Origin: a virus
Reading direction: 5' to 3' (one strand)
Virus record (IMG/VR): IMGVR_UViG_3300022602_000038
Coordinates: 76,721 to 140,720 of that record
DNA: 64,000 bases
Position numbers and translations under genes: made by a program. The notes under the pieces were generated by a model. The model saw only the letters and a program-made list of their open reading frames with translations. It did no database searches and had not been told where the DNA came from. This document shows, one piece after another, positions 29,857 through 63,359 of this stretch (position 1 is its first letter; each line of letters starts with the position of its first letter).

Positions 29857-30393
29857 TTATCTGTATTGTTTTTTTAATAAACGCCATGTCGGGCTATCAA
29901 TAACGACTTTACCATCATCGATGTTTTCAATCATACTGAGAGCTTGATCAATAGTGTTGTATATATATTTATGTTTAAGTTGCCCCATAAGCCATAAAGG
30001 CGTATTTTCTTTACCACCTTCAATAACGACAAATATAGGTTTTCGTGAAGCTACAGCGGTAGATAGTTCTTCAGCTGTACCCCAACTAGCAGTGCTCGGT
30101 ATAATATAAGCAATAATAAAATCCGATCTATCTACTAAGTTAAGATCAAATCTACGAATAGTCTTAGCCCATTCAGTTACTTTATCGTATTCTCCGTTTT
30201 TCATATGTTGACGCATACGAATACGTACATCTGGTGATTCGTCGCTATCACTAATAAACGGTTTTTTGTACGGGTTAAAAACTGTAATGTTGCGTGGTAA
30301 TAAAGAGCTTTCTACTTTTTCTCTCCAGTTACTACCATCAGCATACTCCATTGCTCCAATAGTATAACATTTAGTACGATATAATGTATTCAT
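29857..30393 (-). CDS. Nucleoside 2-deoxyribosyltransferase / NMP N-glycosidase-like protein
   Basis: Y..G.M...WR...VFNP...DL..VD.SD...SWGTAEE motifs. Confidence 0.75.
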   Translation of the reverse strand: MNTLYRTKCYTIGAMEYADGSNWREKVESSLLPRNITVFNPYKKPFISDSDESPDVRIRMRQHMKNGEYDKVTEWAKTIRRFDLNLVDRSDFIIAYIIPSTASWGTAEELSTAVASRKPIFVVIEGGKENTPLWLMGQLKHKYIYNTIDQALSMIENIDDGKVVIDSPTWRLLKKQYR

Positions 30394-33011: not shown

Positions 33012-34070
33012 TTATCGCACTAAACTACGTAATTCTGCCTCTGATACAGTAGCTGTAAAGCCGTCAGGGATACCTTTAACAATACATCCAATAGCATCAT
33101 GAGAATGTAAGCTTTCTAAATGACTGCATACAATTTTAAAGTCTACTACTCGCTTTTCTTTATTGAACTCCTCGTACAATAAACGAGATGCATCTTCAAC
33201 AAACTTAAGATATGCGCCGTTTAATTCAGCAAAAGCTTGTTCATCTTCTCTCTTAACCATTACTTGTGTTTCTGTTTTAAGAGCATTTAAGCACATTTGC
33301 TGTATTTCTTCAAACCAAATATGGTCGTTGTATTTTAACGATATACGGGCTGTAGAACGTTGTGAATGAGACACGACTGCTTTATTACGATGCTTACGAG
33401 CGTGTTCACCTAATTCAAAAGAACAAGGACAAGCAGAGGAATAAACAAAATCAAAATGTACAATTTTATCAAATACACCTTGTTGGTTTAAGTTACACTC
33501 AATAGCAATATTATAGTATTGATAACCTGCATTGCCGGAACGCAAACTCTGTTGAATGATAGGATAAGATATTTTAAGAATAATCTTTGCGTCAAATGTT
33601 TGTAAGTTCTTTTTGTAAAGTTTTAAAACATCTTCAATATAGTTAGCATCAAATACGTTATCTTTATGCTCATAAAAAGAACGAATAATACGCGACATAT
33701 TAATACCTTTCTTTTCAGCAGCTAAAGAAACTGTACCTGTAACAGCAGTTTCTAATTCAATAACTGATCCATCTGCTTTTGTCCATTTAAGTGGTAATTT
33801 AAAATTATGAATACCTACTTGTTGAATAGCTACCTTTGCACCTTGTATTAGAGATGAAGGTCCGTTCTGTAAATCAGGTAAAGTAGCAATATAATTAGAG
33901 TCTACTTTAAGATTAGTATCGTAGTTACGATCAGGTTCCTTGTAACCTAAATTTGCTTTACTAAAATCTATAGTATTAGTATTTTCTTTATCTTCGCCAA
34001 GCCAATCGTATGTTTGAGTATTTGTGTTTTTCACGTGTATAAAATTTTCTCCTGTTGTATATGTTTTCAT
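33012..34070 (-). CDS. folE2: GTP cyclohydrolase IB (FolE2)
   Basis: LPDLQ, IQQVGI, KGINMSR, SACPCS, SHSQRS, VKREDEQAFAE, FVEDA.R, H.ESLHSHDA. Confidence 0.95.
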   Translation of the reverse strand: MKTYTTGENFIHVKNTNTQTYDWLGEDKENTNTIDFSKANLGYKEPDRNYDTNLKVDSNYIATLPDLQNGPSSLIQGAKVAIQQVGIHNFKLPLKWTKADGSVIELETAVTGTVSLAAEKKGINMSRIIRSFYEHKDNVFDANYIEDVLKLYKKNLQTFDAKIILKISYPIIQQSLRSGNAGYQYYNIAIECNLNQQGVFDKIVHFDFVYSSACPCSFELGEHARKHRNKAVVSHSQRSTARISLKYNDHIWFEEIQQMCLNALKTETQVMVKREDEQAFAELNGAYLKFVEDASRLLYEEFNKEKRVVDFKIVCSHLESLHSHDAIGCIVKGIPDGFTATVSEAELRSLVR

Positions 34071-34672
34071 GAAACAGTTGAGTGTCGACTAAAAAGTAAA
34101 TTAAAAGAAATACTAATTCTTTCATTATCAGTAGTATTAGGTTCAGTATTGTGTAATAACCAAGAAGGAAATAAAATCAACATACCTTCCTCCGGGGTTA
34201 TATACTCTAACTCAAGTATTGAATTATAACACCAGGAAGCATTTAACATAAAATTAGGGTTTCTAAAAATAATTTTTCCATCTTTACTATTTGTTTTAAA
34301 ATAATAAACCCCACATAAGTCGACTGGACCATGAGTGTGGGCATAAGCATAGTCATTTTTATTTGAAATGGTCATCCAGGACTCTGAAATGTTATAATTT
34401 GTTGTTTTATTATAATTGAGATGAGTAAGGTATGTAATTACGTGCTTAAGTAACTCTCCTTTAAATATATTAATCTTGTAATCTGTAATTAAATTACTAT
34501 TAAAAGTAGGATCATTTATTAAGTGAGTACCTCTCCAGCCTTTTTGTCTGTCAAATGTATTTTTTTGTTTAAGGTCTTGATATACTTGTTCAAAACTTTC
34601 CTGTACTAAGCTAAATACAGGCTCTTCAAACTTAGCAATATATAAAGGGGTAGAGAAAAGATTTTTAATCAT
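34067..34672 (-). CDS. 2OG-Fe(II) oxygenase (TIGR02466-like)
   Basis: LFSTPLY, SWM, HTH, GVYY, EGMLILFPSWLLH, RISISFN. Confidence 0.9.
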   Translation of the reverse strand: MIKNLFSTPLYIAKFEEPVFSLVQESFEQVYQDLKQKNTFDRQKGWRGTHLINDPTFNSNLITDYKINIFKGELLKHVITYLTHLNYNKTTNYNISESWMTISNKNDYAYAHTHGPVDLCGVYYFKTNSKDGKIIFRNPNFMLNASWCYNSILELEYITPEEGMLILFPSWLLHNTEPNTTDNERISISFNLLFSRHSTVS

Positions 34673-37934: not shown

Positions 37935-38231
37935 TCATGATTTTAACACCTCTCTCACAACTTTGCTACGGCATAAGTTAGGATTATACCGTAAAAATAG
38001 CAATAACGCTTCTCTTTCACTATCTAATTGTACCATTCTCATAAAGATCTTTTTATAGACCTTATTTTTAACAATCAATGAAAAAATTGTAACACTATTA
38101 AGTTTTTTATTATGTATAATAGAACAGAAAGAACTAAACTTAATCAATTCAAACTCTATCTCTTCATCCGTTAAAGAACTTAGCGGGTTATTAATAACTG
38201 CATCTTGTAAGGCACCAATTACACCGGACAT
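37935..38231 (-). CDS. Hypothetical protein
   Basis: 98-aa coupled ORF. Confidence 0.6.
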   Translation of the reverse strand: MSGVIGALQDAVINNPLSSLTDEEIEFELIKFSSFCSIIHNKKLNSVTIFSLIVKNKVYKKIFMRMVQLDSEREALLLFLRYNPNLCRSKVVREVLKS

Positions 38232-39142
38232 TACACTACTGAGGTTAATTGTTTAGTGAATTCCATGAATGCGTCGGTAACCTTACCGCCTGCAGCATAT
38301 TCATGTCCACCGCCTTCACAAAGCTTAGCTGATAGCTTTGAAAGATCTATTGTACAGTTCTTATTTTTTCTAAAAGAAACGTGAGAATTGTTAGGGTTAA
38401 TAAAAAATACTATATCTGAACTATGTTCTTTAATCAAATAATCACAAATTTCGTTAACAAACTTGCTTCCCATTGTACCGGTAACTTTCCAGGGTGTTTT
38501 GTTGAGATTTACAGTACCTGAAAATATTTGTAAGTTTTTTATGGTTAAATCTCTATTTGTTATATGATCTTTAATTAGATTTTTTTCCATTTGGGTAAAC
38601 TGATCAAAACCATTATAAAATCTCTCTAAAAACTTATGTGAACGAGTCTTGTCTAATGTACGCTGCGTGTTAGTATACAAACAATTTAAGTTGTAAGTTT
38701 CTTTATGCTTAAATTGATAACTGTCATAATCATCTGCTAACACTATAAACTGCCTTTGCTCAGGGGTTAATGTTAATTTATCTTTAAAATGATTATATAC
38801 TAGCTTTGCACATGAACTCGTTACAGTAATATTTGTTTTTGCGTTTTTATACTGACTCTTTACTTTTTCATGAGTAGAATGATGATCAATTATAATTGAT
38901 TTCGGGTTATCAATTAAGTCAATACAGTTGCCAGTATCTAAATCTAAAAAATAAACAGCATCGTAATTATTGATACTATCAGTTTCAGCCCATTTTAAAA
39001 ACTCTTTTCTAAAATTAGTAACAGTTACGCCTTTGAAAGGTATAGTGCCTGGTTTTGCATTTAACGCCCAATGCAGAGCAATTAGACTTGCAGTTCCGTC
39101 TAAATCTATATCTGTAAAAACGTATATATTGTTACTACTCAC
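38231..39142 (-). CDS. DHH/DHHA1 phosphoesterase
   Basis: DIDLDG, FLDL, IIDHH, SFR, GGGHEYAAGG. Confidence 0.9.
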   Translation of the reverse strand: MSSNNIYVFTDIDLDGTASLIALHWALNAKPGTIPFKGVTVTNFRKEFLKWAETDSINNYDAVYFLDLDTGNCIDLIDNPKSIIIDHHSTHEKVKSQYKNAKTNITVTSSCAKLVYNHFKDKLTLTPEQRQFIVLADDYDSYQFKHKETYNLNCLYTNTQRTLDKTRSHKFLERFYNGFDQFTQMEKNLIKDHITNRDLTIKNLQIFSGTVNLNKTPWKVTGTMGSKFVNEICDYLIKEHSSDIVFFINPNNSHVSFRKNKNCTIDLSKLSAKLCEGGGHEYAAGGKVTDAFMEFTKQLTSVV

Positions 39143-41705: not shown

Positions 41706-42050
41706 TTAGCTTTTGTCGTCAGCGTCAAAAAGCTTAATAGTAGGAGCTGCTGTATCAGCAGGCTTAAACATTTCTATGTATTGTGCAACAAGATTTGCTT
41801 CTAGTTCAATATTTGAAGCAATAGCTACATTTTCTAAACTATAAGTCCAGTTTGGTGCAACGTCTCTGTTCTTTAAGAATTCCCTAAAAAGTAGAGGGTA
41901 GAGCTGTACTTGTAATTTCTTTTCATTAGTAGGAGCTACGTTTAAGATAGCTGGCTTAGTAATGGTTAAGGTAGTATCAGTCTGTTCTACTAAGGTAGCA
42001 ACAATAGTGCGTTGAATATTATCAAGAAAAACAATAATTTTTGGTTCCAT
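41706..42050 (-). CDS. Hypothetical protein (possible Sm-like fold)
   Basis: IVATL...LTITKPA.L...QLYP pattern; own TTGATT...TATAAT promoter. Confidence 0.55.
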   Translation of the reverse strand: MEPKIIVFLDNIQRTIVATLVEQTDTTLTITKPAILNVAPTNEKKLQVQLYPLLFREFLKNRDVAPNWTYSLENVAIASNIELEANLVAQYIEMFKPADTAAPTIKLFDADDKS

Positions 42051-42086: not shown

Positions 42087-43013
42087 TTATTGACGAGGAA
42101 ATTTATGATAAAGAGCTTTAGGATTAACTAAATTACTATCCAATAAATCTTTGTGAGATGCTCTAGTAGGTACAATATCCCAACCGCCACGACGAGCGTA
42201 AAAACATGTTACTAAAAGCTCTTGTGGTTCTAGTAAGTCCCAAAGACGCTTATAAGCGGCTTCGCAAATTTCTTCATGAAAATGGCACTCATTACGTAAT
42301 GAAACAACCCATTCAAGTAAAGAATTTTCGTTGACTGCTTTATTCCCTTTATAATAGATATAAATGTCTCCGGAATCTGGCTGCTTGGTGATCTTACAAT
42401 TAGAACGTAAAAGAGAGCTCATATAATGACCCTCTACAGTACCTACTGATTTATTATTAATTTTTAATAAATCTGGTGTTTCGTTAAACACTGTAAATTT
42501 AAGCTTTTCTGCTTTAGGTATATTTTCAAGTACGGTCCAACCATAAGGTTCTTCAGTATTATATACATCAAAGAGTCTATTATCAAAATGTTCTTTACTC
42601 AGTAATTGAGAGAACAGTTCTACCTTTACATTCGTTTCAAGTAATAAAGAAAGGTCCTTCTCTGCTGTCTTTTTAATGTTCTTAAGTACTTGAGCACTGG
42701 TTTTACCCATATGCTGCATATTAAATGAATTCCAGTAAAGTTTCATTGATTTAGATTCTACAATGAAATCATTTGTACAAGGATATACTACTTTTGCAAC
42801 ACAAGTAACAGGCAAGCCTTTATCTGTTAATGCACTACATTCATAGCCGTTCCAAATATCATAACCTACAAACGGTAGGTCTTTATTCTTAAGATCGAGG
42901 TACGTACGATTGCGTTGACGTTCTTCTCGAACCAATATTTCAGGTGTATAAGTAGTTGGAGAATCTACTCTTTGTCCAAGTACTTTGTCAATATTATTAG
43001 TGTTATAGCTCAT
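42087..43013 (-). CDS. queF: preQ0 reductase QueF (bimodular type)
   Basis: DIWNGYE, VESKSMKLYWNSFN, LRSNCKITKQPD (catalytic Cys), FHEEICE, YARRGG. Confidence 0.95.
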   Translation of the reverse strand: MSYNTNNIDKVLGQRVDSPTTYTPEILVREERQRNRTYLDLKNKDLPFVGYDIWNGYECSALTDKGLPVTCVAKVVYPCTNDFIVESKSMKLYWNSFNMQHMGKTSAQVLKNIKKTAEKDLSLLLETNVKVELFSQLLSKEHFDNRLFDVYNTEEPYGWTVLENIPKAEKLKFTVFNETPDLLKINNKSVGTVEGHYMSSLLRSNCKITKQPDSGDIYIYYKGNKAVNENSLLEWVVSLRNECHFHEEICEAAYKRLWDLLEPQELLVTCFYARRGGWDIVPTRASHKDLLDSNLVNPKALYHKFPRQ

Positions 43014-43578
43014 TTGTAAAATCTTTTTGTATTTCAGTAATTACTTTGTTAACTCTTTCTTCAACAGTACCCATCACATAAACAAGTTTATCTGTAGGCA
43101 TTGAGTGATGTTTGATATAAAAATCAAATTGTTTTACCACTCCATCAAAAAACTCTCTACCTGTACTTCTTTCCCCATCGTCTTTTAAATCAAGTTCAGG
43201 TACAATATAGAAAATCTTATCATAGGTCTTTATTAATTGTTCATAGATGCTTAGGGCAGCTTGATATATCTCCTTGTTAATTTGACCCTTTTCATAAAAA
43301 TATGAAGTGTAGGATATACCATCTAAAGCACCTCTATCTAATACCCAGTTACCTGGAGTTAAAGCAAATTCTAAGTGTCTAGCCATCACCAAGTATTGCG
43401 TTAAAGATGTACCTCCTTCATTAATAGGTACATTTAAATCTTTTAAACCTCTAGTTAAATTAGTTCTAAATGAAAAATGATTGTCGTCTAAAAACAATTC
43501 ATTCTTTAGAGCTTTTACTAAAGTAGTTTTACCTTGTGAATGAGCGCCACATATAGCAGCTTTATAATTAGTTCTCAT
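43003..43578 (-). CDS. P-loop nucleotide monophosphate kinase-like protein (AAA_28/NadR-like)
   Basis: GAHSQGKTT, LDRGALD...Y, DDGER. Confidence 0.75.
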   Translation of the reverse strand: MRTNYKAAICGAHSQGKTTLVKALKNELFLDDNHFSFRTNLTRGLKDLNVPINEGGTSLTQYLVMARHLEFALTPGNWVLDRGALDGISYTSYFYEKGQINKEIYQAALSIYEQLIKTYDKIFYIVPELDLKDDGERSTGREFFDGVVKQFDFYIKHHSMPTDKLVYVMGTVEERVNKVITEIQKDFTNEL

Positions 43579-44159
43579 AGTTTATTATTTAATATTTTAT
43601 TCTTCATAAACGCAACCCAATTATTAATTGCAAGTTTATGTAAATCCTCAATAAATAAATCCAAACTTTTAAAATCCGTATACAAATCTTCTGTTTTAAA
43701 ACTTGTCTCTGAAACGACCCTACCAGCATCTACTTCTGGTATAACTTCATGAATAACATGTCCATGTACATTATACTTTTTTGTGGGGTATGTTTGCCAC
43801 ACTTTAGCTTGTGGATCTTTACCTTTTAATTCAGGAAATTTAGTAATAAGACCAGGGTGACCGTTATATATTTTAAATTTACTGCATATCTCTGGTGGTA
43901 CAATACGAAGAAACCCGTGTAATGTAATTATATCAGTAAATTTAATAGCTTCTCTATATTCTTGTACAGTTGGCTTTTTAGGTATAAAAATAAAACGATC
44001 AAAACATCTTTCAAGAAATTTTGGGTTAATTTTATCTAAATCTTCAAAGCTTTTATTAGTAATAATTGCATCTGGAAATCGCCCTATCTTTGTAGATAGT
44101 TCATATATCTCAGAACCACTCTGAGAAAAAAATGCTTTCCAGATTATATTGCGTTTCAT
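43575..44159 (-). CDS. PurN-like formyltransferase (candidate DpdN)
   Basis: FFSQSGSE, LHGFLRIVP, YNGHPG, HEVIPEVDAG. Confidence 0.85.
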   Translation of the reverse strand: MKRNIIWKAFFSQSGSEIYELSTKIGRFPDAIITNKSFEDLDKINPKFLERCFDRFIFIPKKPTVQEYREAIKFTDIITLHGFLRIVPPEICSKFKIYNGHPGLITKFPELKGKDPQAKVWQTYPTKKYNVHGHVIHEVIPEVDAGRVVSETSFKTEDLYTDFKSLDLFIEDLHKLAINNWVAFMKNKILNNKL

Positions 44160-44386
44160 ATATTTAAGCGAAACCCTATTGTATTATCACTAAAAAAAAT
44201 TACAAGGGTAAAATCAACAATACCGTGTTTTATTAGGTAAGGTTTAACATCAGATAGTTCTTTTACTGGGAGTTCACAATTACGAATACAATCCCAAAAA
44301 TAATAATTCCGAACAGAAACATTATCTGCCAAGAGGTGGGGGTAATTTGCATGAACAGAATTAGTTATAGCTTCTAAAGTTGTCAT
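44156..44386 (-). CDS. Small hypothetical protein within the deazaguanine module
   Basis: 76 aa, ATGA-coupled on both sides. Confidence 0.65.
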   Translation of the reverse strand: MTTLEAITNSVHANYPHLLADNVSVRNYYFWDCIRNCELPVKELSDVKPYLIKHGIVDFTLVIFFSDNTIGFRLNI

Positions 44387-45189
44387 CCATTAACGTAATT
44401 TCTAAACTCAATTAAATTACTTGCAATGATTCTTTCTTGTATTGTGTCTGGTACTACATCTAACAGATCTACAAGCTTAGTAGACTCTTTTTTCCAGTTA
44501 CCTATTGCGTCAGTGTATCTTATTCTTTTAATACCATGAACAATAGGAGATGATGTATCTAATGTTTCGATCCAATTATATTCAGGACCTTGATAGAAAC
44601 TAAACTCTCTCGGGTGAGCACAACCTAGTAAGTGATGAGGTTTGTCTTTATTAATAATACCATCGTTCATTAATTGGGTGAGTGTTATTACTCTACCCAT
44701 CATATAAGATACCCACTTGTTAGGGTGCGGAAATAGTTTAAGATAATAAGAGTAATCGAACGATATAGCTAATTTATCTACATCAATTTCTTGATCTAAA
44801 GTTACATAACATTTAACTAACTCTGCATAAGTTTTACCTTGTACAACACCGATAGTTTTAGAGTTATTAAGAAAATCCCACTCTCTCCATAGACATTTCT
44901 TAGCAGATTCAATTGTACCGTTACAATCTTCTAATACATCTGGTATAATATATTCAGTGGGATTAAGCTTTTCTATCCAGTAAGCATAACGTTTAGAATC
45001 AAAAGCTGTACCTAATTCAAATATAGAGTTATCTAATAGAACATGTCTACCTTGTTCTAAACTATCTACAAAGAAGGAATAATAATCAGCATGATGTTCA
45101 AATAAATGCACTAATGCATAATCATAATCGTTGTATGTACGAGACATCTCGAGCATACTTAAAGGAGATTCGTGAGAAATTTTAATCAT
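44383..45189 (-). CDS. Divergent TGT-like guanine transglycosylase (candidate DpdA3-type)
   Basis: LLDNSIFE, IIPDV, GVVQG, HHLLG, LDTSSP match the order of TGT/DpdA barrel motifs; next to polB and QueF. Confidence 0.7.
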   Translation of the reverse strand: MIKISHESPLSMLEMSRTYNDYDYALVHLFEHHADYYSFFVDSLEQGRHVLLDNSIFELGTAFDSKRYAYWIEKLNPTEYIIPDVLEDCNGTIESAKKCLWREWDFLNNSKTIGVVQGKTYAELVKCYVTLDQEIDVDKLAISFDYSYYLKLFPHPNKWVSYMMGRVITLTQLMNDGIINKDKPHHLLGCAHPREFSFYQGPEYNWIETLDTSSPIVHGIKRIRYTDAIGNWKKESTKLVDLLDVVPDTIQERIIASNLIEFRNYVNG

Positions 45190-47750
45190 GAGAATAAATT
45201 AAATAAGTCTGTTTGTACTTCGCTATTAGTTTGTGGTAATTGCCAGTTAAGAGCGTCATATACAGCTTTAACTGGTGGTGTTATAATAGTATCGAACATT
45301 TCTTGATAATCAACTTGAAAATCGTTTAATTCCGGTGGAAAAGTACCTGTATAACATAGAGTATCAATATTATACTTGTTACCTGCAATGTAAATTTTCT
45401 TTACTTTACCGCCAGATGTAATTCTTTCGTACTTGTTTTCAAGATTTCTATGTTTTAATAGCTGATTATACCAAATAGCACCTTTTACGTGATTTGGAGT
45501 ACCTTTTGATATTTTAAATCCTTCAGCCTTGACTTCATGCTTTTCAATATCACTTAAACCGCCTCTAATAGCGATATCATCAGTAGAAAGCTTCTTAAAC
45601 GTATCGTAAACCTCTCTATATAGAGTATTAGCTTTATTATGATCTTGACCTAACAAACTATTTTCAATGACTCGCTTAATAAGTTCTTTAGCTTTTTTAG
45701 GTGTAGTAGAACGTGCAATTTCAACTCCAACGTATTTAAACTTATTAACATCAGCACCTTCATCGTTTAATACGTGTATAATATAACGTTTCTTTTGTAG
45801 GTAAACACCTACATCACAAATAGATTCTCTCTTAAAAAAGTAACGAGGGTCAATAGATTTAAACTCAGATGCAGACCATTTCTTAATCTCACTATTTAAA
45901 TATGTACCTATTTCTTTATCTATCAGGTTTAATCCCTCTGGGGTTACTTTACCCTCAGCAAATAGCTTTATCTTAAGCTTATCAACAATTGGTTGAATAG
46001 TAACATGAGTACTGTCAGTGTCACCATATATATTAAGAGAAACGTCAACTCCGTATTGCTCTTTAGCATATGTATCAAGGATAACACCTGCTTGTTTAAC
46101 CACCGACTGACCAGTAAGAGTAATGCTACCGGCGTGATCACTATCACAAATAGGGCTAAACTTATTAGCAAAAACACCGTAGATAGAATTAAGAAGAATC
46201 TTAATGACGTGCTGTATGGTGTCAGCTCGTTCCATATTAGACTTACACGTTTTGTACTCATCTGTATTTGGGGTTAATTTACTTAGCTTCTTTTTATAGT
46301 CTATATACTCATTTTTGTTTTTTACACGTTCACTGTAAAGACCATCAATTAAAGATGGTACAACACCTTTTTTCTTTTGAGTATACAGTACACCTGCTTT
46401 AGATATAGCTAGCTTTTCAACTTCTAAAAACCTATCAAACTTACTAGCAGTTATTTCATGAGTATTACCGCTAGCTGTAAGCAACGTAACTGTTTCATCT
46501 GTACGCTTTAATATCTTACCCATTTTAGTTTCAGGTGATATATTAAGAGTAATAATGGTATTAGGATATAGAGAGTTAGCATCATAACTAACAATAGAAG
46601 TTTTTAAACCTCTTTCTGGTTCTCTTACATAACCGCCGTCAATTTCATCTCTTAGTGGTCCGCCCACGAAAGTTGGTATAATCATGCCGTGTTTATAAGC
46701 TTCTAACGCAACACAACCAGTAACAATAGATACCTTACCTAAAGCAGCTTCAAAACTTGTTAGTCCTTTTGTCGCTAACATGCGAATGATTTTAAAGAGC
46801 TGTAATTTACGCTCCATTCTGACAAGCAGTTCAACATCTTGAATATTATAATTAACAAAGTTATTCCAATCGCTTTGAGATAAAGTAGCTAGGTTTGTAG
46901 CATTAATAGCTAGTTTACCTTCTCCGAGCTCGTGTTCTGCAACAAAGTTAAGAGAGTATGATTCAAGTAATTGACGTGAGAATCCCTTATACACTTCAAG
47001 ATAATCCATAGCTGCAATGCCATGTATGTACCACTTATCTAATTTCTGTCCTTTAACAAATATCCCCTCTCTACACCATACGCTATTTACAGGTGATAAT
47101 CTCTTAGCTGCACCATCTCCGAAGATACTTGTAAGACGATTAATAATGTAAGGAAAGTCGAAAAAGTCTGTATTCCAACCAGTAAGAATATCTGGGTAAT
47201 TATCGTCTTTTTCAAAGAATTCGATAAACTTACTGAGCATATCTACTTCGTTTTTACATAATGTGTAAATTACATTCTTTCTGTCAGTACTGTACGGACT
47301 ACATCCCCAAGTATAAAAATTTTCAGATAGATTATCGTAAACTGTTATAAGATTAATAGGGTGCTTAGCGTCTTTAGCTTCCGGAAATTCATCTGGAGAA
47401 TAAACTTCAATATCTAAGAAAAATATCTTAAGTGGAAACTTAGTAAACTCAGGTTTATCGTATTCGTCTTTAAACGTATCTATAAGAAACTGCTGTTCTA
47501 CTTGAATGTTGTGGTATAGTCGCTTAATAGCGCCATCTTGAGACGCTCTATTACGTTCGTAGCTATTTTTATAAACCTTCTTTTTAAGTTTAGTATTAAA
47601 AATAGATAAAGCGTCAGCCGTATCAAGATTAGTTTCTATGTAGAAATAAGGTAAATGTGGTTGTTTTTTTACAACACGATTACCATTTTCATCCCATGTA
47701 AAAAGATGACAGATACTATCTTTTGAACTATAATAAACGTTTCGGTACAC
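45186..47750 (-). CDS. Family B DNA polymerase (gp43)
   Basis: LDIE, GWN...FD, YNIQD, YDANSLYP, KILLNSIYG, YGDTDS, KKRY; C-terminal QTDLFNLF clamp-binding-like tail; GTG start. Confidence 0.97.
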   Translation of the reverse strand: MYRNVYYSSKDSICHLFTWDENGNRVVKKQPHLPYFYIETNLDTADALSIFNTKLKKKVYKNSYERNRASQDGAIKRLYHNIQVEQQFLIDTFKDEYDKPEFTKFPLKIFFLDIEVYSPDEFPEAKDAKHPINLITVYDNLSENFYTWGCSPYSTDRKNVIYTLCKNEVDMLSKFIEFFEKDDNYPDILTGWNTDFFDFPYIINRLTSIFGDGAAKRLSPVNSVWCREGIFVKGQKLDKWYIHGIAAMDYLEVYKGFSRQLLESYSLNFVAEHELGEGKLAINATNLATLSQSDWNNFVNYNIQDVELLVRMERKLQLFKIIRMLATKGLTSFEAALGKVSIVTGCVALEAYKHGMIIPTFVGGPLRDEIDGGYVREPERGLKTSIVSYDANSLYPNTIITLNISPETKMGKILKRTDETVTLLTASGNTHEITASKFDRFLEVEKLAISKAGVLYTQKKKGVVPSLIDGLYSERVKNKNEYIDYKKKLSKLTPNTDEYKTCKSNMERADTIQHVIKILLNSIYGVFANKFSPICDSDHAGSITLTGQSVVKQAGVILDTYAKEQYGVDVSLNIYGDTDSTHVTIQPIVDKLKIKLFAEGKVTPEGLNLIDKEIGTYLNSEIKKWSASEFKSIDPRYFFKRESICDVGVYLQKKRYIIHVLNDEGADVNKFKYVGVEIARSTTPKKAKELIKRVIENSLLGQDHNKANTLYREVYDTFKKLSTDDIAIRGGLSDIEKHEVKAEGFKISKGTPNHVKGAIWYNQLLKHRNLENKYERITSGGKVKKIYIAGNKYNIDTLCYTGTFPPELNDFQVDYQEMFDTIITPPVKAVYDALNWQLPQTNSEVQTDLFNLFS

Positions 47751-47782: not shown

Positions 47783-48964
47783 TCAAGAAAAATATAGTCT
47801 CGTGAACTCATCAATATGATCTTCTAACCAGTATTTAGATGCAACTTTACGAGCACTATCAGATTCTGTAAGGTAAATACGGCGATCCGATAAGACCTTT
47901 TTAAGTTTATCAATCATTTCATCTGCTGTATTGAAACGTAAAGGTGCTACCGGAGATGTATTATACGGTGTTAAATCTTGACATATACATGGTAAGCCTA
48001 GTGCACCAGCTTCTAAATACTTAATTGGTGCTTTAGCTAAATTAAATTTGTTATTTTGTAGTGGAGCGATAGCCGCGTTTAAGTTTAAACTACTAAATGC
48101 AGCAGGGTAGTTCCAAATAGTAGCCCATGGTGTATACTCAATGTCACCGCTTCTTACTAAGTGATGCAGTTCTTGAGGTACACCACCCATTAAAACCCAC
48201 TTAAAGTACTTAGATGTTTTAATAATAACATCTGCAATATCACCGAAGTCGTCTTTTATACCTGGTACATTGGCAACATTAAAGTGTGTGGGGCTGCCAA
48301 TATAACCTACCCTTGGACGTTTCTTATTTGCTTCGTAATTTTCTGTAATTTTTACTTTACTATAAAATCTGTCCATCCAGAACTTAGGCATGTAATTAGG
48401 TAATGTTATACCTTTTACCCCAGTTTTTTCTTGATAATATTTTGACATGTAGTCTGTAGGGGTTGTAATACCGTCACATAACTGCATAATCTTTTCAGCT
48501 GTTTGAGTTATAGTCGGATCTACAAACGCTTCTCTAGCTTTATTGTACAGTGGTATATCATCTGGATATATTACATCGTCAATATCATAGTAAATCTTAA
48601 ACTTGTTTGTTTTGTTAGAAACTGCCCTTAAATACTGTACAAATTGTAATTGGGTAGGAGTAACCTGTCTTTGTATTCTTACAGAACTAATTCCATCATA
48701 AAAATTATCCTGTAAAATCATAAAATTATTATTGTTAATAATTCCTAATTGATTGCCGTTTATTACTGTTTCTGGCCAATGAATTCTCCAGAAACCACAA
48801 CCTTGATGATCTGCAGCATAACTTACAGCTCTTTTAGTACCGCCTGGTAATCCTGTAACTGGAGCAGAAGGTTGTACTGTTTCATTTACTAATGGACTAC
48901 CAAAAGCAGGAGCTCCTAAAGGTAGTTGTGGAGCACCAAATACTCCGTTATTAAGATTTATCAT
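47783..48964 (-). CDS. Glycosyltransferase (GT-B-like)
   Basis: GCGFWRI.WP, YDIDD, LPNY, VGYIGSPTH, IAPL..N.FN.AK..IKYLE. Confidence 0.75.
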   Translation of the reverse strand: MINLNNGVFGAPQLPLGAPAFGSPLVNETVQPSAPVTGLPGGTKRAVSYAADHQGCGFWRIHWPETVINGNQLGIINNNNFMILQDNFYDGISSVRIQRQVTPTQLQFVQYLRAVSNKTNKFKIYYDIDDVIYPDDIPLYNKAREAFVDPTITQTAEKIMQLCDGITTPTDYMSKYYQEKTGVKGITLPNYMPKFWMDRFYSKVKITENYEANKKRPRVGYIGSPTHFNVANVPGIKDDFGDIADVIIKTSKYFKWVLMGGVPQELHHLVRSGDIEYTPWATIWNYPAAFSSLNLNAAIAPLQNNKFNLAKAPIKYLEAGALGLPCICQDLTPYNTSPVAPLRFNTADEMIDKLKKVLSDRRIYLTESDSARKVASKYWLEDHIDEFTRLYFS

Positions 48965-50771
48965 AGTTTGTAGTTCTAGTTGTTATGCCGTTTTTCTTTT
49001 CAAGATAAACAATTTCTCCTCCGATACAGTATTTTTTACTTTCTTTACGATGAGAAATGATGTAAATTGATTCATTATAATTATCTACTCGATCTTTAAG
49101 AATATCAAGTACTAACTCAATACCTTTCTCGTCTAAAGATGAGTCAAATAGTTCATCAAACATACTTAAATTCAACCACACATCTGCTTGCGCTCTTCGT
49201 ATATCCTGAAATGTAAAAAGCATTGCAAGGTCTATAGCTTTTCGTTCAGCACCTGAAAAATTGAAATAACTACATTCTACACCACGCTCATTAGTAATAA
49301 TTTCTTCGAAAAACTCATTAAATACAACAGTACTATTACTTTCTAATTTACGTAGATACACACTCAATCGAGTATTAAGAACTTGTAGTATCTTTTTAAC
49401 GATAAACGATTTTACGCCTTCTTCAGATGTAATAAGTTTAGCATTTTCAATAATATCTAGCTTTTCTTGTAAATTGACTGTACTGTTTTTAATATCTAAC
49501 TGTCTTCTTAATATCTTATCAATACTAACCTGTAAATCATTGGAGTCATTATTGAGTTGATCTATATCAACTACTAACGACTGCAACCAAGATTCAAGTT
49601 GTTTAACTCGTTGTTCGACGTTCTTTACCTCTTGTTTACGTAAAGTAAATTCATTTAATTTACGCTCCATAGCTGGTATAGCTGTATCAAGTTTATCTAA
49701 TCCTTTTTGAGCAGCAACTAACCGTTCTTTTTCTTTATCTCTTATTTCAGTATATTTGACTATTTCTACTTCACAGTCAGCTTTATCCTTTTCGTATTGG
49801 GTGTTAGCAGCTTCAGCTAAATCCTTACCGCAATAAGGACATTTACTATCGACTTTTTTAATTTTTTTAATACGGTCAGTATTAAATTTAATATGCGCTT
49901 CTGCTTCTGTTACGACTTTATTAATACCGGCTACTTTTTTATTATAACTCTTCTCAGCTTCTTTTAAAAGCTTTAGATCTGTTTCGATTTTTTCTTGTGC
50001 TTGAGAGTTTACAGGTTCAAATTTACTTAACTTTACATTTAAATCCTCAAGTTCTTTTTTGTTGTTTGACTGCCGATCCTGCAATACTTTTAATCTCTTT
50101 TTCTTGTTTTCTTCGTAAATGTCTTTCTGTTTAGTAGCATCTAATAAAGACCTTTCAGTTTCTTCAAACTTAGTAGTTTCAATATCTAAAGCTTTTTTAG
50201 TATCGTTATAATCAGATCTTACCTGTAATAACATTTCTCCAAACACTTCAAGACCAAGTATACCTTCAATAAACTTTCGCTTTTCTACTTTCTTTTGTGC
50301 CATGAACGGTATAGTATTATTAATAGACATAATAATACTATTTTGAAGTACTTCAGAAGAGGTCTTAATTGTATCTACGATTAATTCTGTGGTTTGTGGT
50401 ACACCAGAACGAGTAACATCTTCTCCGTTTACATAGAATAAACATCTAGTAGGATTAATTGTTCTTATGATTTTACATTCGTTTATTTTATCACTCTGAT
50501 AACTAAACTCTAATTCAACTTCACACAATTGATCCGGTGCTTGGTTATTAACTATGTTTTCCTTTTTAAGGTCTCGTATAGTACTACCATATAGAGCAAA
50601 GTGCACTGCATCTGCTATAGTAGATTTACCAACACCGTTTGCTCTATCAGATTTGTCGTAATTACGACCGGTAATAATATTAAGACCTGGTTTAAACGTA
50701 ATTTCTACAGGTTTCTTACCAACAGATAAGAAATTAGACAGTTTTATACGCTTAAAATAAACATAACGCAT
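48951..50771 (-). CDS. Recombination endonuclease ATPase subunit (gp46/SbcC/Rad50)
   Basis: NFLSVG, NGVGKST, CPYC zinc hook, FSGAE, DELFDSSLD, ISH. Confidence 0.95.
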   Translation of the reverse strand: MRYVYFKRIKLSNFLSVGKKPVEITFKPGLNIITGRNYDKSDRANGVGKSTIADAVHFALYGSTIRDLKKENIVNNQAPDQLCEVELEFSYQSDKINECKIIRTINPTRCLFYVNGEDVTRSGVPQTTELIVDTIKTSSEVLQNSIIMSINNTIPFMAQKKVEKRKFIEGILGLEVFGEMLLQVRSDYNDTKKALDIETTKFEETERSLLDATKQKDIYEENKKKRLKVLQDRQSNNKKELEDLNVKLSKFEPVNSQAQEKIETDLKLLKEAEKSYNKKVAGINKVVTEAEAHIKFNTDRIKKIKKVDSKCPYCGKDLAEAANTQYEKDKADCEVEIVKYTEIRDKEKERLVAAQKGLDKLDTAIPAMERKLNEFTLRKQEVKNVEQRVKQLESWLQSLVVDIDQLNNDSNDLQVSIDKILRRQLDIKNSTVNLQEKLDIIENAKLITSEEGVKSFIVKKILQVLNTRLSVYLRKLESNSTVVFNEFFEEIITNERGVECSYFNFSGAERKAIDLAMLFTFQDIRRAQADVWLNLSMFDELFDSSLDEKGIELVLDILKDRVDNYNESIYIISHRKESKKYCIGGEIVYLEKKNGITTRTTNYDKS

Positions 50772-50846
50772 TAGTTATAATATAGCTTATAATCCATTAA
50801 AATCTACTTGCTTAATTCAGACTCCCTGTATAAATACAGTCACAGT

Positions 50847-51596
50847 ATGACTGACTTAAAAGATTTAACTTTTTTAATAGCATTAAAAATCGATAGTGAG
50901 GATCGTCTTAATAATTTAGATACTACTATCAATTATTTGCAGTATCACTTTAACACAAATATTGTAATTTGTGAACAAGATGTACAGCCGAAAATAAAAA
51001 ACCGGTATAATTGTGAATACGTTTTTAGTGAAACTAAAGAGTTTTTCAATAGACAAAGAGGTGTTAATTTAGCTGCTAGAAAAGCCAAAACCCCTGTTAT
51101 TGTACATTATGATGCGGATATTTTATTAACCCCTAATCAAATTAAAAAGTCAGTTGAAATAATTTCAACAAAACAAGCGCAAATCGTTTACCCGTATGAT
51201 GGAAAGTTTTACGATGTACCTAAGAAATACCACTCGCAAATAAAGCAAACTAATAGTTTAGATGATATTAATTTAGCTGAATGTACTTTATTTAATCCGC
51301 ATTCAGTTGGTGGTGCAGTATTTTTTGATACTAATGTGTTTTGGGAAGGTGGCGGTGCTAATGAAAAATTTATAGGTTTAGGGTATGAAGATAATGAAAT
51401 TCATACAAGATTTAAAACGTTAGGCTATCAAATTGCTAGAGTGTCTAAACCGTTATTTCATTTAACTCATGAAAGAAAAGAAACCTCATTTAATTATAAT
51501 CCGTATCTAGACTATAATCGTTTAGAATATCTTAAAATTGAAAAAATGTCTAAGCAAGAGTTAATTAATGAAGTTAGTACCTGGAACTGGAAATGA
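50847..51596 (+). CDS. GT2/GT7-like glycosyltransferase (galactosyltransferase-like)
   Basis: R..N, EQD, FNR..G.N, YDAD, GG.NE.F.G.GYED.E, HL.H; start after TATAAATA at 50829-50836. Confidence 0.8.
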   Translation: MTDLKDLTFLIALKIDSEDRLNNLDTTINYLQYHFNTNIVICEQDVQPKIKNRYNCEYVFSETKEFFNRQRGVNLAARKAKTPVIVHYDADILLTPNQIKKSVEIISTKQAQIVYPYDGKFYDVPKKYHSQIKQTNSLDDINLAECTLFNPHSVGGAVFFDTNVFWEGGGANEKFIGLGYEDNEIHTRFKTLGYQIARVSKPLFHLTHERKETSFNYNPYLDYNRLEYLKIEKMSKQELINEVSTWNWK

Positions 51597-52402
51597 TTAC
51601 ATTTAAAGCATTAGGCCGCAACGGCAATACGGGTAATTCTTTGTTTCAGTTTGCTGCGCTCATATCTATTGCAAAAGATAAAGGGTATGATGTTAAGATA
51701 CCGAATAACCCTACATATTTTGATGTAAACTATAAATGTACTAATTATTCTATACTTGATGGTTTTAACATAAAAGTACCGTTTTTAAGTAACAATGAAT
51801 CTAATACAATTGTTAATACATTTCAAGAAAACGGTTTTCACTTCCAAAAAGAAATATACAACATAAAAGACAATACAAACTTATTGGGGTACTTTCAAAG
51901 TGAAAAGTATTTTATACACAACAAACAGTACATATTAGATAATTTAACGTTTAAGGATGAAATTATAGAAGCTGCAAAAAGTATTTTTACAGAAAATAAA
52001 ATAACACCTGAAGATACTACTTCAATACACATACGTAGAGGTGATTTTACTTCGAAGCAGTATTATCACCCACTCATGGGGCCTGAGTATTATGCAGCAG
52101 CCTCTAAAGCTACAGCGTCAAAGTATTATATTGTTTTTTCAGATGATATTGACTGGTGTATGAAAGCCTTAGGTAATAACGGCAACGTAAGATATTCCAC
52201 TAACAAAAACCCGTTTGTGGATATGTGCGCTATGAGTATGTGCAGTAACAATATTATTGCTAATAGTACTTTTAGTTGGTGGGGTGCATGGTTTAATAAG
52301 AACCCCAATAAAGTTATCGTGGCACCTAAAAAGTGGTTTGGTCCAGGGTACGCTGACTGGAATACAGCAGATCTATACCCGTCTACCTGGTTAACGATTT
52401 AA
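51593..52402 (+). CDS. GT11 alpha-1,2-fucosyl/colitosyl-transferase
   Basis: GN.LFQ.A, GYFQSEKYF, HIRRGD, FSDDI.WC, IIANSTFSWWGA, P..W. Confidence 0.9.
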   Translation: MITFKALGRNGNTGNSLFQFAALISIAKDKGYDVKIPNNPTYFDVNYKCTNYSILDGFNIKVPFLSNNESNTIVNTFQENGFHFQKEIYNIKDNTNLLGYFQSEKYFIHNKQYILDNLTFKDEIIEAAKSIFTENKITPEDTTSIHIRRGDFTSKQYYHPLMGPEYYAAASKATASKYYIVFSDDIDWCMKALGNNGNVRYSTNKNPFVDMCAMSMCSNNIIANSTFSWWGAWFNKNPNKVIVAPKKWFGPGYADWNTADLYPSTWLTI

Positions 52403-53570
52403 GTTGTATTTCGTTAAGAAAAGTAGCAAATTTTAATAAATCCCGCTCTTTTACTTTACTATGTAAACCTACATAAAATCCCTGATTATGCAGTAGTTCA
52501 CTATTAACAAAGTCTTTACTGTAATACTGCTTTAAACACGTTTGTCGTAAAAGATTACCGGATATAATAGGTCTAAATTCAATATTATTATCTAAGCAAT
52601 ACTTTTGAGCAGCTTTATAATGTTCTTTAAACCTAAAATATAAAGGTATACAAAAAGGTACATCTTCTTGACTAGTAAATGAACCGCCAGTTCTAACGTT
52701 CCAAAGCATTACGTTAGTGTTTGTTATACTTTCGTAGAAGTATTTGTAAAGTTCTACTCTTTTATCTTTATAAAACTCTTTTCTCTTTAAATCTAATAAA
52801 CCTATAAATGCATTGATATTAGTATTTCTGAAATTATTACCTAAAATATTAAAATCAAAACGAGAATCTACGTCTGGGTTTTGATATGTTTCTTTATTTT
52901 CTTTAAGACTACGTACCATACCATGATTACGAGCCATTAAAAAGTATTCATATTCCGTTTTATCATTAGTAAAAATAAAACCACCCTCTACACTTTGTAA
53001 TTGATGGCCAAAATAAGTACTTGTAGTGGAAGTAAAGTAACTTGAAACGTTTTTATGATTGTATTGACCAAGAGTGTTCTCACAGTTATCTAACATTATT
53101 TTAACCCCAAATTCTGCTTCTATCTTTTTAATACGGTCAATATCAGGTACAAAGCCTAACAAACTAGTAATAAACACACAAGCTACTTTATCTTTATTTT
53201 CTTTTAAATACGTGGCGAGTATGTTAAGATCTAAAGACAGATCATTAAATCCTATATCTATAAACTTCGGTTCAAACCCTTCTCTTATGAAAGGAGACAC
53301 TGAAGTAATCCATGTAGTGGAAGGAAAAATTACAACGTTTTTATCTTTTGTGTAAAACTTATCTTTAAGGTACATTGCTAATATAGTATTAGCAGTTGAA
53401 CCACTAGATACAAACACAGAGTATTTACTACCCACATAATCTTTCATGGCGTTTTCGTACTCTTGTACTTTATCTGCCATAGTCCAAAAGTTTTTCTTAT
53501 TAAGAAAAAACGAACATATTTGTAGTTTGTCTAAGAAAGTGAAATTTGATTCGTTAAGTGACCAGCCCAT
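52383..53570 (-). CDS. PLP-dependent sugar 3-dehydratase, ColD-like (DegT family with His at the Lys position)
   Basis: SSGSTAN, DNCE, STYFGHQLQSVEGG, RNHG..R, RPIISGN; no Fe-S Cys cluster; start taken at MGWSL. Confidence 0.75.
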   Translation of the reverse strand: MGWSLNESNFTFLDKLQICSFFLNKKNFWTMADKVQEYENAMKDYVGSKYSVFVSSGSTANTILAMYLKDKFYTKDKNVVIFPSTTWITSVSPFIREGFEPKFIDIGFNDLSLDLNILATYLKENKDKVACVFITSLLGFVPDIDRIKKIEAEFGVKIMLDNCENTLGQYNHKNVSSYFTSTTSTYFGHQLQSVEGGFIFTNDKTEYEYFLMARNHGMVRSLKENKETYQNPDVDSRFDFNILGNNFRNTNINAFIGLLDLKRKEFYKDKRVELYKYFYESITNTNVMLWNVRTGGSFTSQEDVPFCIPLYFRFKEHYKAAQKYCLDNNIEFRPIISGNLLRQTCLKQYYSKDFVNSELLHNQGFYVGLHSKVKERDLLKFATFLNEIQLKSLTR

Positions 53571-54483
53571 GAAAGTAATTATCAAAAGTTTTCTTTATTC
53601 CATCAGTTAATAGAGTATATTTAAAATCTGGAAATACATTTAAAAGTGCTTCAGATGATACATCTTTTCTGTACCCACCATCAGGTTTTGTACTATCCCA
53701 TTTAATTTCTAAGTCTGTTGCATCACATACAGTTAGAGCGGTTTCTGCAATTTGCTTTACGCTATATACTTCGTTAGTAGCAACATTAGCATTAGGGTAG
53801 GTGTTAGTAGTAATACAGCGATATATAATTTGTGCTAAATCATCAGCATACATAAACTGCCTTAAAGGTTTACCAGTACCAAACAATGTTATGTACTTTT
53901 CATTTCTCTTTTTAGCTGTAGCTATTTTATGTACTAAACTTGAAACAAAATGTGCTTTATCTCCAGTAAAGTGATCGTATTCGGAATATAAATTACATGG
54001 AATAAGATAATTATAATTTGTACCGTATTGTTTATTATAACTATCTATTTGTACACCTAAACATCTTTTTGCATACCCATACGAGAAGTTACTTAATGCT
54101 GGAGGTCCTAAATGTAGAGTTTCTTCTTTTAAAGGATACTGATTTACTGGTAATGTATCAGGATAAATACATGTACTTAAAATTCCTATAAAACGTTCTG
54201 CTTTGTACTTATAAGCTGCTTTTAGTACGTTTGTATTAATGTAAATGTTGTCTTCAAAAAACTCTACCGGGTTGTTAATGTTATCCATTATGCCACCCAC
54301 TTTAGCAGCTAAATGCACCACTATATTAGGTTTAAATTTATTAAACGCTTCTTCAACTGATTTATAATCAGTTAAATTACAGTTTTTACGGCTCAAATAA
54401 AATGTATTATAAATAGAACCTGATAGGTATTTACGTAGATGTTTACCTACCATACTTGTACCGCCTGTAATTAATATGTTCAT
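53554..54483 (-). CDS. GDP-L-fucose synthase / ColC-like epimerase-reductase
   Basis: ITGGTSMVG, HLAAKVGGI, STCIYP, YGYAK, PCNLY, GTGKPLRQF, KPDG. Confidence 0.9.
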   Translation of the reverse strand: MNILITGGTSMVGKHLRKYLSGSIYNTFYLSRKNCNLTDYKSVEEAFNKFKPNIVVHLAAKVGGIMDNINNPVEFFEDNIYINTNVLKAAYKYKAERFIGILSTCIYPDTLPVNQYPLKEETLHLGPPALSNFSYGYAKRCLGVQIDSYNKQYGTNYNYLIPCNLYSEYDHFTGDKAHFVSSLVHKIATAKKRNEKYITLFGTGKPLRQFMYADDLAQIIYRCITTNTYPNANVATNEVYSVKQIAETALTVCDATDLEIKWDSTKPDGGYRKDVSSEALLNVFPDFKYTLLTDGIKKTFDNYFHGLVT

Positions 54484-55274
54484 TTATTTGTAATAACTTT
54501 ACAAAGCTTGGCTATATTTTTTTGATTTATTTTTCTAATTTCACTTATGTTTATTACCTTAGGTGATATGTTAATATCAAAGTTAATATAATTCTGATAT
54601 GTAATTGACTCTATTTTATTTGTTACATAAGGTGTTGTACCACTCATAAGTGCTTCAACAATCTTACCTTTATTATGATATAAAATACCATTACCAGCTT
54701 CATCTCTCCCGGAAGGTACTATAACGCTTCCATGATATGTACTGACTGTTCTGAATAGTTTTTTAAAATCTTCAGCAATTAAACTATCAAACGTTATAGG
54801 TATATCTGTGTGTTCGTTTTTTAATTGAACAGTATTAGGTGGTAATTTTCTATTTAAACCTAAATGTCCATAATAACATAAATTACCTGTTTTAACTGGT
54901 ACCTTATCAGGAAACAATGCTTCATTCATAACATATTCAGAAATAATTGTTTCTACTGTAGGAAATCTATCTTTAAACTGTTTATCAAACAAAACAATTT
55001 TATCTAATAAATTATTTTTAATAAAAATATCTGGACCAGCAAAACCAAAAGGATCATATACTATATACACTACTGGTCTATTTTTTTGTTTACAATCATA
55101 TGCTTTTTGCAGACATTGTCTAAAAGTTGTAATATTTGCAGCAGGGTCTAAAACAAGACCAATGTCAAAATTGTCATCGTTATCGTTGACAAAAGTTAAA
55201 TTATTACGCAAACACGGTAACGTGTGTTGAGTATTAAATGGATGAACAAGCGGGTTAAGAAGCTTTATTTTCAT
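54480..55274 (-). CDS. Hypothetical protein, possibly glycosyltransferase-related
   Basis: Inside glycan island; YYG...KIVEALMSG resembles a GT-B C-terminal motif. Confidence 0.5.
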   Translation of the reverse strand: MKIKLLNPLVHPFNTQHTLPCLRNNLTFVNDNDDNFDIGLVLDPAANITTFRQCLQKAYDCKQKNRPVVYIVYDPFGFAGPDIFIKNNLLDKIVLFDKQFKDRFPTVETIISEYVMNEALFPDKVPVKTGNLCYYGHLGLNRKLPPNTVQLKNEHTDIPITFDSLIAEDFKKLFRTVSTYHGSVIVPSGRDEAGNGILYHNKGKIVEALMSGTTPYVTNKIESITYQNYINFDINISPKVINISEIRKINQKNIAKLCKVITNK

Positions 55275-63322: not shown

Positions 63323-63359
63323 CGGTTGAATTTTAAGTTTTTTGTGTTACTATACGTAT

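Follow-up and report, generated by a model that had tools for sequence, protein, structure and literature searches.

The DNA analysed here, referred to as the window, is the right-hand 64 kb (64,000 nucleotides, positions 76,721 to 140,720) of the 140.7-kb IMG/VR virus contig IMGVR_UViG_3300022602_000038, which comes from an uncultured, metagenomic lake phage and is estimated to be approximately 65% complete. Six minus-strand genes of the window form one operon in which the start or stop codon of each gene overlaps the next, encoding in order a family B DNA polymerase (PolB), a DpdA3-type guanine/7-deazaguanine transglycosylase, a small open reading frame (ORF), a PurN-like formyltransferase (DpdN), a P-loop kinase and QueF, the preQ0 to preQ1 reductase. 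The kinase is the subject of this analysis and was found to be a near-obligate, dedicated genomic partner of DpdA3 rather than a chance neighbour.

Gene names were assigned from Pfam and PHROGs searches of the window proteins, and the gene identities and the operon structure are established from these matches and from the overlaps. The polymerase gene (45186-47750; DNA_pol_B and exonuclease domains; phrog_262, 7.6e-189) is the first of the operon and overlaps by 4 nt the gene for DpdA3, a TGT-like protein of 268 amino acids (aa) encoded at 44383-45189 that is 51% identical to the annotated DpdA of Flavobacterium phage immuto. The ORF that follows (76 aa, 44156-44386) has 4-nt overlaps on both sides and homologues in 48 related loci, and returned neither a Pfam nor a PHROG match. 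The dpdN gene (194 aa, 43575-44159, PF00551) overlaps by 4 nt the kinase gene (191 aa, 43003-43578, ATG start, AAA_28), which shares 11 nt with the gene for a bimodular QueF of 308 aa (42087-43013; QueF_N 3.3e-28, QueF 3.4e-17). A sequence-only reading of the window had described a P-loop kinase gene between the formyltransferase and queF as well as a short TGT-like protein, and both were present, the kinase gene overlapping its two neighbours. A promoter and terminator scan of the operon gave chance-level results and a megablast search of the module against phages found no match.

The P-loop kinase between DpdN and QueF

The kinase carries the Walker A motif GAHSQGKT at residues 11-18 and matched the Pfam family AAA_28 (PF13521) with 34.5 bits (2.9e-8, cut-off 27) and phrog_2107, which is named 'thymidylate kinase', at 5e-23. 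PF13521 was present in all but one of the 120 kinase homologues listed, and conservation of the protein across hundreds of metagenomic homologues indicates a real gene. It is a stand-alone protein without an NMNAT domain, and a search for longer kinase relatives found none. The structure model (pLDDT 89) was matched by Foldseek about equally well to thymidylate kinases (TMPKs), deoxynucleoside kinases (dNKs) and the ribosylnicotinamide kinase (RNK) domain of NadR, with E values near 1e-6 and TM scores of 0.6-0.68, including NadR 6gyf (TMq 0.68, E 4e-6) and the thymidylate kinases 4s2e (TMq 0.68) and 2yoh (7.4e-7). The protein is thus identified as a small-molecule kinase of the NadR-RNK, deoxynucleoside-kinase and thymidylate-kinase fold, and since the TMPK fold is common to dNKs and NadR the fold alone does not decide the family.

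A profile search of the PDB ranked NadR RNK (6gye, 1.9e-6) ahead of the dNKs (3-4e-4, with 8j5e at 3e-4) and the thymidylate kinases (4e-3), which places the protein, judged by its profile, nearer the nucleoside kinases than the thymidylate kinases. The nearest characterised relatives phosphorylate nucleosides, so the label 'NMP-kinase-like' in the sequence-only reading was imprecise. The window kinase had no match to Pfam Thymidylate_kin (PF02223) at E <= 0.01 and none to dNK (PF01712), while its immuto orthologue scored 17.3 bits against Thymidylate_kin, below the cut-off of 27. In the profile alignment with 8j5e (3e-4), D81-R82 fell on the ERS motif of dNKs, where the CP220 kinase has ER, and Q61 on the base-binding Gln; the DDGxR motif aligned with the NadR lid. 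The P-loop, N53, R82, D86, Y90, R137 and R175 were invariant across the DpdA3-linked AAA_28 kinases including that of Campylobacter phage CC_R7, and Q61 was invariant in alignments A1 and A4, the aligned position in CC_R7 being K. The fold and these conserved residues are compatible with a nucleoside or a nucleotide as substrate.

Linkage of the kinase to DpdA3

Two sets of 80 IMG/VR loci were used to follow the gene pair. Sixty-one of the loci fetched by DpdA3 (58-93% identity) had enough downstream sequence, the other 19 ending within 918 bp, and the kinase gene was located 200-810 bp downstream of DpdA3 on the same strand in 61/61. The second set was fetched by distant relatives of the kinase, 45-93% identical to the query P0109, which is itself approximately 40% identical to the window kinase. 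Eight of these had less than 1.7 kb of upstream sequence, and in all of the 72 informative loci (72/72) DpdA3 was located upstream of the kinase on the same strand, the spacing ranging between a 67-nt overlap and 7 kb. The linkage therefore held in 133 of 133 informative viral loci, and each of the 20 DpdA3 clusters formed at 70% identity in the sampled loci was kinase-linked (20/20).

Thirteen loci had overlapping DpdA3, kinase and QueF genes without DpdN, and one (L061) retained the DpdA3-kinase link without either DpdN or QueF. In Campylobacter phage CP220, whose modified base is ADG (dADG in DNA), an AAA_28 kinase 34% identical to that of the window directly follows DpdA3, and CC_R7 encodes QueC, DpdA3, an AAA_28 kinase and a DNA polymerase. 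The persistence of the linkage without DpdN or QueF and in these two phages indicates that it tracks DpdA3 and not the base that is made. Among 50,697 phage records the kinase was found only in Campylobacter phages, in Flavobacterium phage immuto and in 62 Streptomyces phages.

Other kinases occupied the same slot in further DpdA3 clades. The phiST gene CGPG_00066, listed as unknown in Cui 2023 (PMC10516641), is directly upstream of DpdA3 and encodes a small P-loop kinase. Its homologue in Chryseobacterium phage MA9V-3 is likewise encoded directly upstream of DpdA3, and the two proteins exceeded the AAA_18 cut-off. Four IMG/VR relatives had a kinase of the phiST type upstream of DpdA3, directly in L179 and L180, at approximately 1.4 kb in L182 and at approximately 2.7 kb in L181. 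In Bacillus phage BSTP12 and Weizmannia phage Youna2 the gene directly upstream of DpdA3 encodes a third P-loop form, which has a DRF motif and whose profile matched the AAA_28 kinases weakly over the full length (E 3.8e-4). The filling of one slot by different kinases argues that kinase activity itself is what DpdA3 needs. In L180 (2557-3096 and 3030-3983) the kinase homologue makes up the C-terminal portion of an ORF of 317 aa, and the product of the preceding gene has an N-terminus that by eye resembles a dUTPase or dCTP-deaminase.

The phages 9g, CAjan and Rosebush, which encode DpdA1 or DpdA2 and modify their DNA partially, had no AAA_28 gene, and 9g DpdA1 had no kinase neighbour. A PF01702 (TGT) search missed the DpdA of these three phages and DpdA1 was taken from the annotation. 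The DpdA1 of 9g adjoins its polymerase and clamp. PolB is directly upstream of DpdA3 in the window, and this position was rejected as evidence, since the DNA-acting DpdA1 of 9g also adjoins a polymerase and the adjacency consequently discriminates nothing.

DpdA3, DpdN and the timing of guanine replacement

The 268-aa window protein had no Pfam match. It is 42% identical to CP220 gp056, its profile recovered CGPG_00065 of phiST at 3.7e-19, and its model (pLDDT 89) was identified as a TGT barrel by Foldseek (1.7e-8). The motifs LDNS, PD, HLLG and LDTS were kept in all clades, and the invariant residues D53, D84 and D211, which align with 9g DpdA1, probably correspond to Asp95/130/256 of bacterial DpdA (PMC10164549). 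Bacterial DpdA has a 128-residue DNA-binding insertion after its nucleophile Asp (PMC10164549), and only 57 residues follow the putative nucleophile in DpdA3. The DpdA3 proteins are acidic (median pI 5.7, n=137). Net charge was rejected as a test of DNA binding because 9g DpdA1, which acts on DNA, has a similarly low pI of 5.6, and the measure is uninformative. The same enzyme is 317 aa long, so the shortness of DpdA3, correctly noted in the sequence-only reading, is weak as evidence for a substrate other than DNA.

The window DpdN is 43% identical to that of immuto and its best solved relatives are GAR transformylases. It aligned with E. coli PurN at the catalytic N-x-H and D and also at the N-terminal PurN-type S-G-S loop, which in PurN binds the 5'-phosphate of GAR. 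DpdN thus looks like an enzyme whose natural substrate is a small amine on a phosphorylated sugar and is compatible with action in the nucleotide pool. Natural DpdA3-DpdN fusions of 447 aa were found in the representative library (P0264 and P0374), with DpdA3 as residues 1-267 and DpdN as residues ~272-446, the latter 38-43% identical to the window DpdN. Long DpdA3 representatives were either such fusions, homing-endonuclease read-through or unknown extensions. Structure prediction of a DpdA3-kinase complex scored 0.02 against a mark of 0.32 and is evidence neither way.

Insertions and replacements were observed around DpdA3 in several loci. A GIY-YIG homing-endonuclease-like gene of 268 aa (L104:2533-3339) was inserted between DpdA3 and DpdN in two loci, and the 475-aa 'long DpdA3' P0243 has a NUMOD3 motif and is probably a similar insertion that is read through. 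The IMG/VR locus L122 has a 181-aa protein (617-1162) in the DpdN slot between DpdA3 and the kinase, with weak GNAT acetyltransferase matches (E ~1e-3) below the cut-off, so that the modified base there may be an N-acetyl-preQ1 variant.

The chemistry of DpdA3 phages has been described. Deoxyguanosine is fully replaced by fdPreQ1 in immuto DNA, and DpdA3 phages are those with complete guanine replacement, known only for immuto, phiST and CP220 (Cui 2023, PMC10516641). The CP220 group is credited with 100% dADG (Crippen 2019, as cited in PMC10516641 and PMC6884629), and ADG nucleoside was seen in CP220-infected cells (PMC10516641). When expressed by itself in E. coli, DpdA3 did not modify DNA, unlike DpdA1 and DpdA2 (PMC10516641). 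A modified-dGTP route for Campylobacter phages was cited in Hutinet 2019 (PMC6884629) and was set aside in 2023, after the discovery of DpdA3, when Cui 2023 argued for post-replicative insertion (PMC10516641). The word 'kinase' is absent from both papers, and our literature searches found no later DpdA3 paper and no reconstitution of the nucleotide route, in agreement with the earlier remark that the mechanism had been proposed and not reconstituted.

In the pre-replicative route proposed here, FolE2, QueD, QueE and QueC would make preQ0 and QueF would reduce it to preQ1, which DpdA3 would exchange for guanine on free deoxyguanosine or dGMP, not on finished DNA. The PurN-like DpdN, apparently built for a 5'-phospho-sugar amine, would formylate the aminomethyl group, and the kinase would phosphorylate an unusual deoxynucleoside or deoxynucleotide that the host guanylate kinase may not accept. 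Host Ndk would then make the triphosphate and the co-transcribed PolB would incorporate it, so that all G would become fdPreQ1. As the kinase lies nearer the nucleoside kinases, the swap could be on deoxyguanosine rather than dGMP. We infer the substrates of both enzymes, the order of the steps and a replacement that precedes replication from several observations taken together. A metabolite kinase has no obvious job on finished DNA and an obvious one on an unusual deoxynucleoside or deoxynucleotide, so its linkage to DpdA3, which is established across viral loci, favours a route through the pool. Together with complete replacement, the failure of DpdA3 alone in E. coli, the ADG nucleoside and the likeness of DpdN to PurN, this makes the nucleotide-pool route the best single explanation, plausible but unproven, and we hold it with about even confidence. 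The stronger statement is offered tentatively: DpdA3 may not be a DNA transglycosylase at all and may be the first TGT-family enzyme to work on a free deoxynucleoside or deoxynucleotide, in which it would replace guanine by a 7-deazaguanine, forming with the kinase a de novo pathway to 7-deaza-dGTP analogues that a polymerase incorporates.

Several observations weigh against this route. To our knowledge every characterised TGT-family enzyme acts on a polynucleotide and none is known to act on mononucleotides, and DpdA3 retains the full TGT catalytic set. Complete pre-replicative replacement normally requires removal of the canonical deoxynucleoside triphosphate (dNTP). Searches for MazG, PRA-PH, MazG-like, dUTPase_2 and HD genes found none in the approximately 65%-complete window contig, genes of the dGTP-removing type were present in only 6 of 24 DpdA3 phage records, and they were absent from two of four near-complete IMG/VR genomes. 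Genes for an NTP pyrophosphatase (MazG, PRA-PH) or an HD protein do adjoin DpdA3 in immuto, phiST, L179 and CP220. No DpdA3-kinase fusion was found among longer kinases or in the long DpdA3 representatives examined, and a distant DpdA3-like gene in a 233-kb jumbo phage (L183) had no adjacent kinase. The kinase relatives in the 62 Streptomyces phages (27% identity) also count here, the one phage checked, BoomerJR, being without DpdA3. Were the protein a nucleoside kinase, the route would leave a second kinase step unexplained. Finally, the only publication on DpdA3 concludes that insertion is post-replicative (PMC10516641). The pre-replicative inference of the sequence-only reading is accordingly strengthened by the linkage and by the absence of the kinase from the partially modifying DpdA1 and DpdA2 phages, and weakened by the lack of a dGTP-depleting enzyme in the contig.

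The published alternative, in which DpdA3 swaps bases in finished DNA (Cui 2023, PMC10516641), here with very high efficiency, could account for the kinase as a GMP or nucleoside kinase that, with a phosphoribosyltransferase (PRTase), recycles the released guanine to GTP for 7-deazaguanine synthesis. It is consistent with the polynucleotide substrates of the known TGT and DpdA enzymes, with the catalytic Asp motifs that DpdA3 shares with the DNA-acting DpdA1, with a PRTase gene in the immuto cluster and 17 related loci, and with the lack of a universal dGTPase in the 24 DpdA3 phage records. However, hosts already have an essential guanylate kinase, DpdA1 and DpdA2 phages release guanine too and have no such kinase, and the gene stays with DpdA3, often overlapping it, and not with FolE, QueD or QueE. 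The occupation of one slot by three different kinase families and the failure of DpdA3 alone to modify DNA in E. coli, where DpdA1 and DpdA2 did so (PMC10516641), also speak against this alternative, and we regard this explanation as unlikely while giving it appreciable weight.

A P-loop protein could instead power processive base exchange by DpdA3 on DNA, as DpdB does for bacterial DpdA, which needs DpdB and ATP (PMC10164549), and the tight, often overlapping gene pair is what would be expected of a two-subunit enzyme. Fold and profile searches matched the protein to small-molecule kinases and not to ParB-like or translocase ATPases, conserved positions outside the P-loop line up with the motifs by which nucleoside kinases bind their substrates, and the 191-aa protein has no DNA-binding domain, all of which make an ATPase cofactor improbable. 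An ordinary thymidylate kinase for general DNA precursor supply, in the cluster by chance, would suit the name carried by phrog_2107 and the RefSeq annotations and the presence of TMPKs among the best fold matches. This is hardly credible given that the Pfam Thymidylate_kin model was not matched by the window protein and only below cut-off by the immuto orthologue, and that the profile scores for thymidylate kinases were approximately 1000-fold worse than those for NadR RNK. The linkage in 133/133 loci, the restriction of the gene among other phage records to the Streptomyces group and the location of the immuto thymidylate synthase gene 7 kb away point in the same direction.

The kinase partner is a component that the two key papers do not discuss, and it suggests why DpdA3 failed in heterologous tests. 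With it, the pre- or post-replicative timing of full replacement of G by a 7-deazaguanine becomes a testable question. If the nucleotide route is true it would be a fifth kind of pre-replicative base replacement and would give enzymatic access to 7-substituted 7-deaza-dGTPs, compounds with uses in sequencing and synthetic biology. Should the route prove wrong, the cluster would be a further example of the immuto-type fdPreQ1 system.

Accessory genes and related systems

Genes for other steps of 7-deazaguanine synthesis were located elsewhere in the window. A FolE2-type GTP cyclohydrolase I, the first step to 7-deazaguanines, is encoded at 33012-34070 on the minus strand (PF02649, 7.8e-66), and QueD at 63342-63824 on the plus strand at the extreme contig end (tblastn, 39% identity with immuto QueD). 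Neither QueC nor QueE was found in the approximately 65%-complete contig, and both are presumably located past its end. The nucleoside deoxyribosyltransferase (NDT)-like gene that the sequence-only reading had drawn into the module is indeed present (29857-30393, minus strand, 178 aa; Nuc_deoxyrib_tr, PF05014, 38.9 bits, 1.1e-9, cut-off 28.8), the closest solved protein being YtoQ (3.3e-4). Just one of the 24 DpdA3 phage records had this gene, which is therefore not part of the conserved DpdA3 module, and only two unrelated phages of the 50,697 records, and none of the isolate DpdA3 phages, carried it. A 114-aa ORF at 41706-42050 was considered as a hidden MazG and rejected, as it had Sm-like/DUF6561-type neighbours in Atlas, no Pfam match and a phrog_527 (unknown function) assignment.

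Genes for UvsX, DnaB, a DHH protein and gp32 are located downstream of the operon. The DHH/DHHA1 phosphoesterase (NrnA/RecJ-like, 303 aa, 38231-39142, minus strand), between DnaB and gp32, could yield mononucleotides from oligonucleotides. Auxiliary genes at 24913-26499 (-), 27493-28712 (-), 28792-29415 (+) and 34067-34672 (-) include a tryptophan-halogenase-family flavoenzyme (PF04820, 3.9e-99), two adjacent Methyltransf_24 genes and two 2OG-Fe(II) oxygenases. A sugar-modification block adjoins the replication genes at 47783-48964 (-) and 50808-56070 (both strands), with GT1-like, GT2, GT11 and GT10 fucosyltransferase-like genes, a DegT aminotransferase and an NAD-dependent epimerase/dehydratase, and an SMC/Rad50-like ATPase is encoded at 48951-50771.

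Two arrangements in other phages were also observed. The CP220 gene gp055 (L002:7047-8078), directly upstream of DpdA3, encodes a fusion of an HD phosphohydrolase and an AAA_33 kinase. Counting the downstream AAA_28 kinase, the transglycosylase of CP220 would be flanked by a hydrolase and two kinases. In BoomerJR (L003:7214-8612) and approximately 60 relatives the AAA_28 kinase gene overlaps that of an FkbM-family methyltransferase, with a MazG gene 5 kb upstream, and the two may be another nucleoside- or nucleotide-level modification pair.

The hydroxymethylcytosine route of T4 uses a dCMP hydroxymethylase, the gp1 dNMP kinase and a dCTPase, and Z-genome phages use PurZ, MazZ and DatZ. The proposed route would resemble these in that a phage enzyme makes an unusual dNMP, which a kinase takes further toward the triphosphate for use by a phage polymerase, and in that replacement is complete. 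It would differ in that the base is installed by a TGT-fold transglycosylase, an enzyme type with no precedent for a mononucleotide substrate, and in that the enzyme removing the canonical dNTP is missing or not universal in DpdA3 phages.

The kinase shares with NadR RNK and the dNKs (PDB 6gye, 8j5e, 8puu), its best PDB profile matches, the P-loop, the (D/E)R motif, the Gln, the DDGxR lid and the AAA_28 family, and differs from them as a stand-alone, phage-encoded, DpdA3-linked protein of 191 aa with approximately 20% identity at most. Bacterial DpdA and DpdB, of the Dpd restriction-modification system, are likewise a TGT-fold enzyme with an NTP-using partner, although the partner there is a ParB-like ATPase and the bacterial DpdA contains the large DNA-binding insertions Ins1 and Ins8 (PMC10164549), whereas the partner of DpdA3 has a metabolite-kinase fold.

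CP220 is like the window in that the AAA_28 kinase follows DpdA3 and in that its guanine replacement is complete, and it is unlike the window in the absence of QueF and DpdN, in the gp055 HD and AAA_33 fusion upstream of DpdA3 and in its base, ADG. The closest likeness is to immuto, which has the same order of DpdA3, small ORF, DpdN, kinase (named 'thymidylate kinase') and QueF, with identities of 51%, 43%, 33% and 41% for DpdA3, DpdN, the kinase and QueF, and which also has the cluster near its replicative polymerase. The two differ in that the window has PolB and FolE2 where immuto has PolA and FolE, and in the MazG-like and PRTase genes of immuto, which were not found in the window contig. 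With the window cluster, the known immuto-type fdPreQ1 system gains a new member from an uncultured phage.

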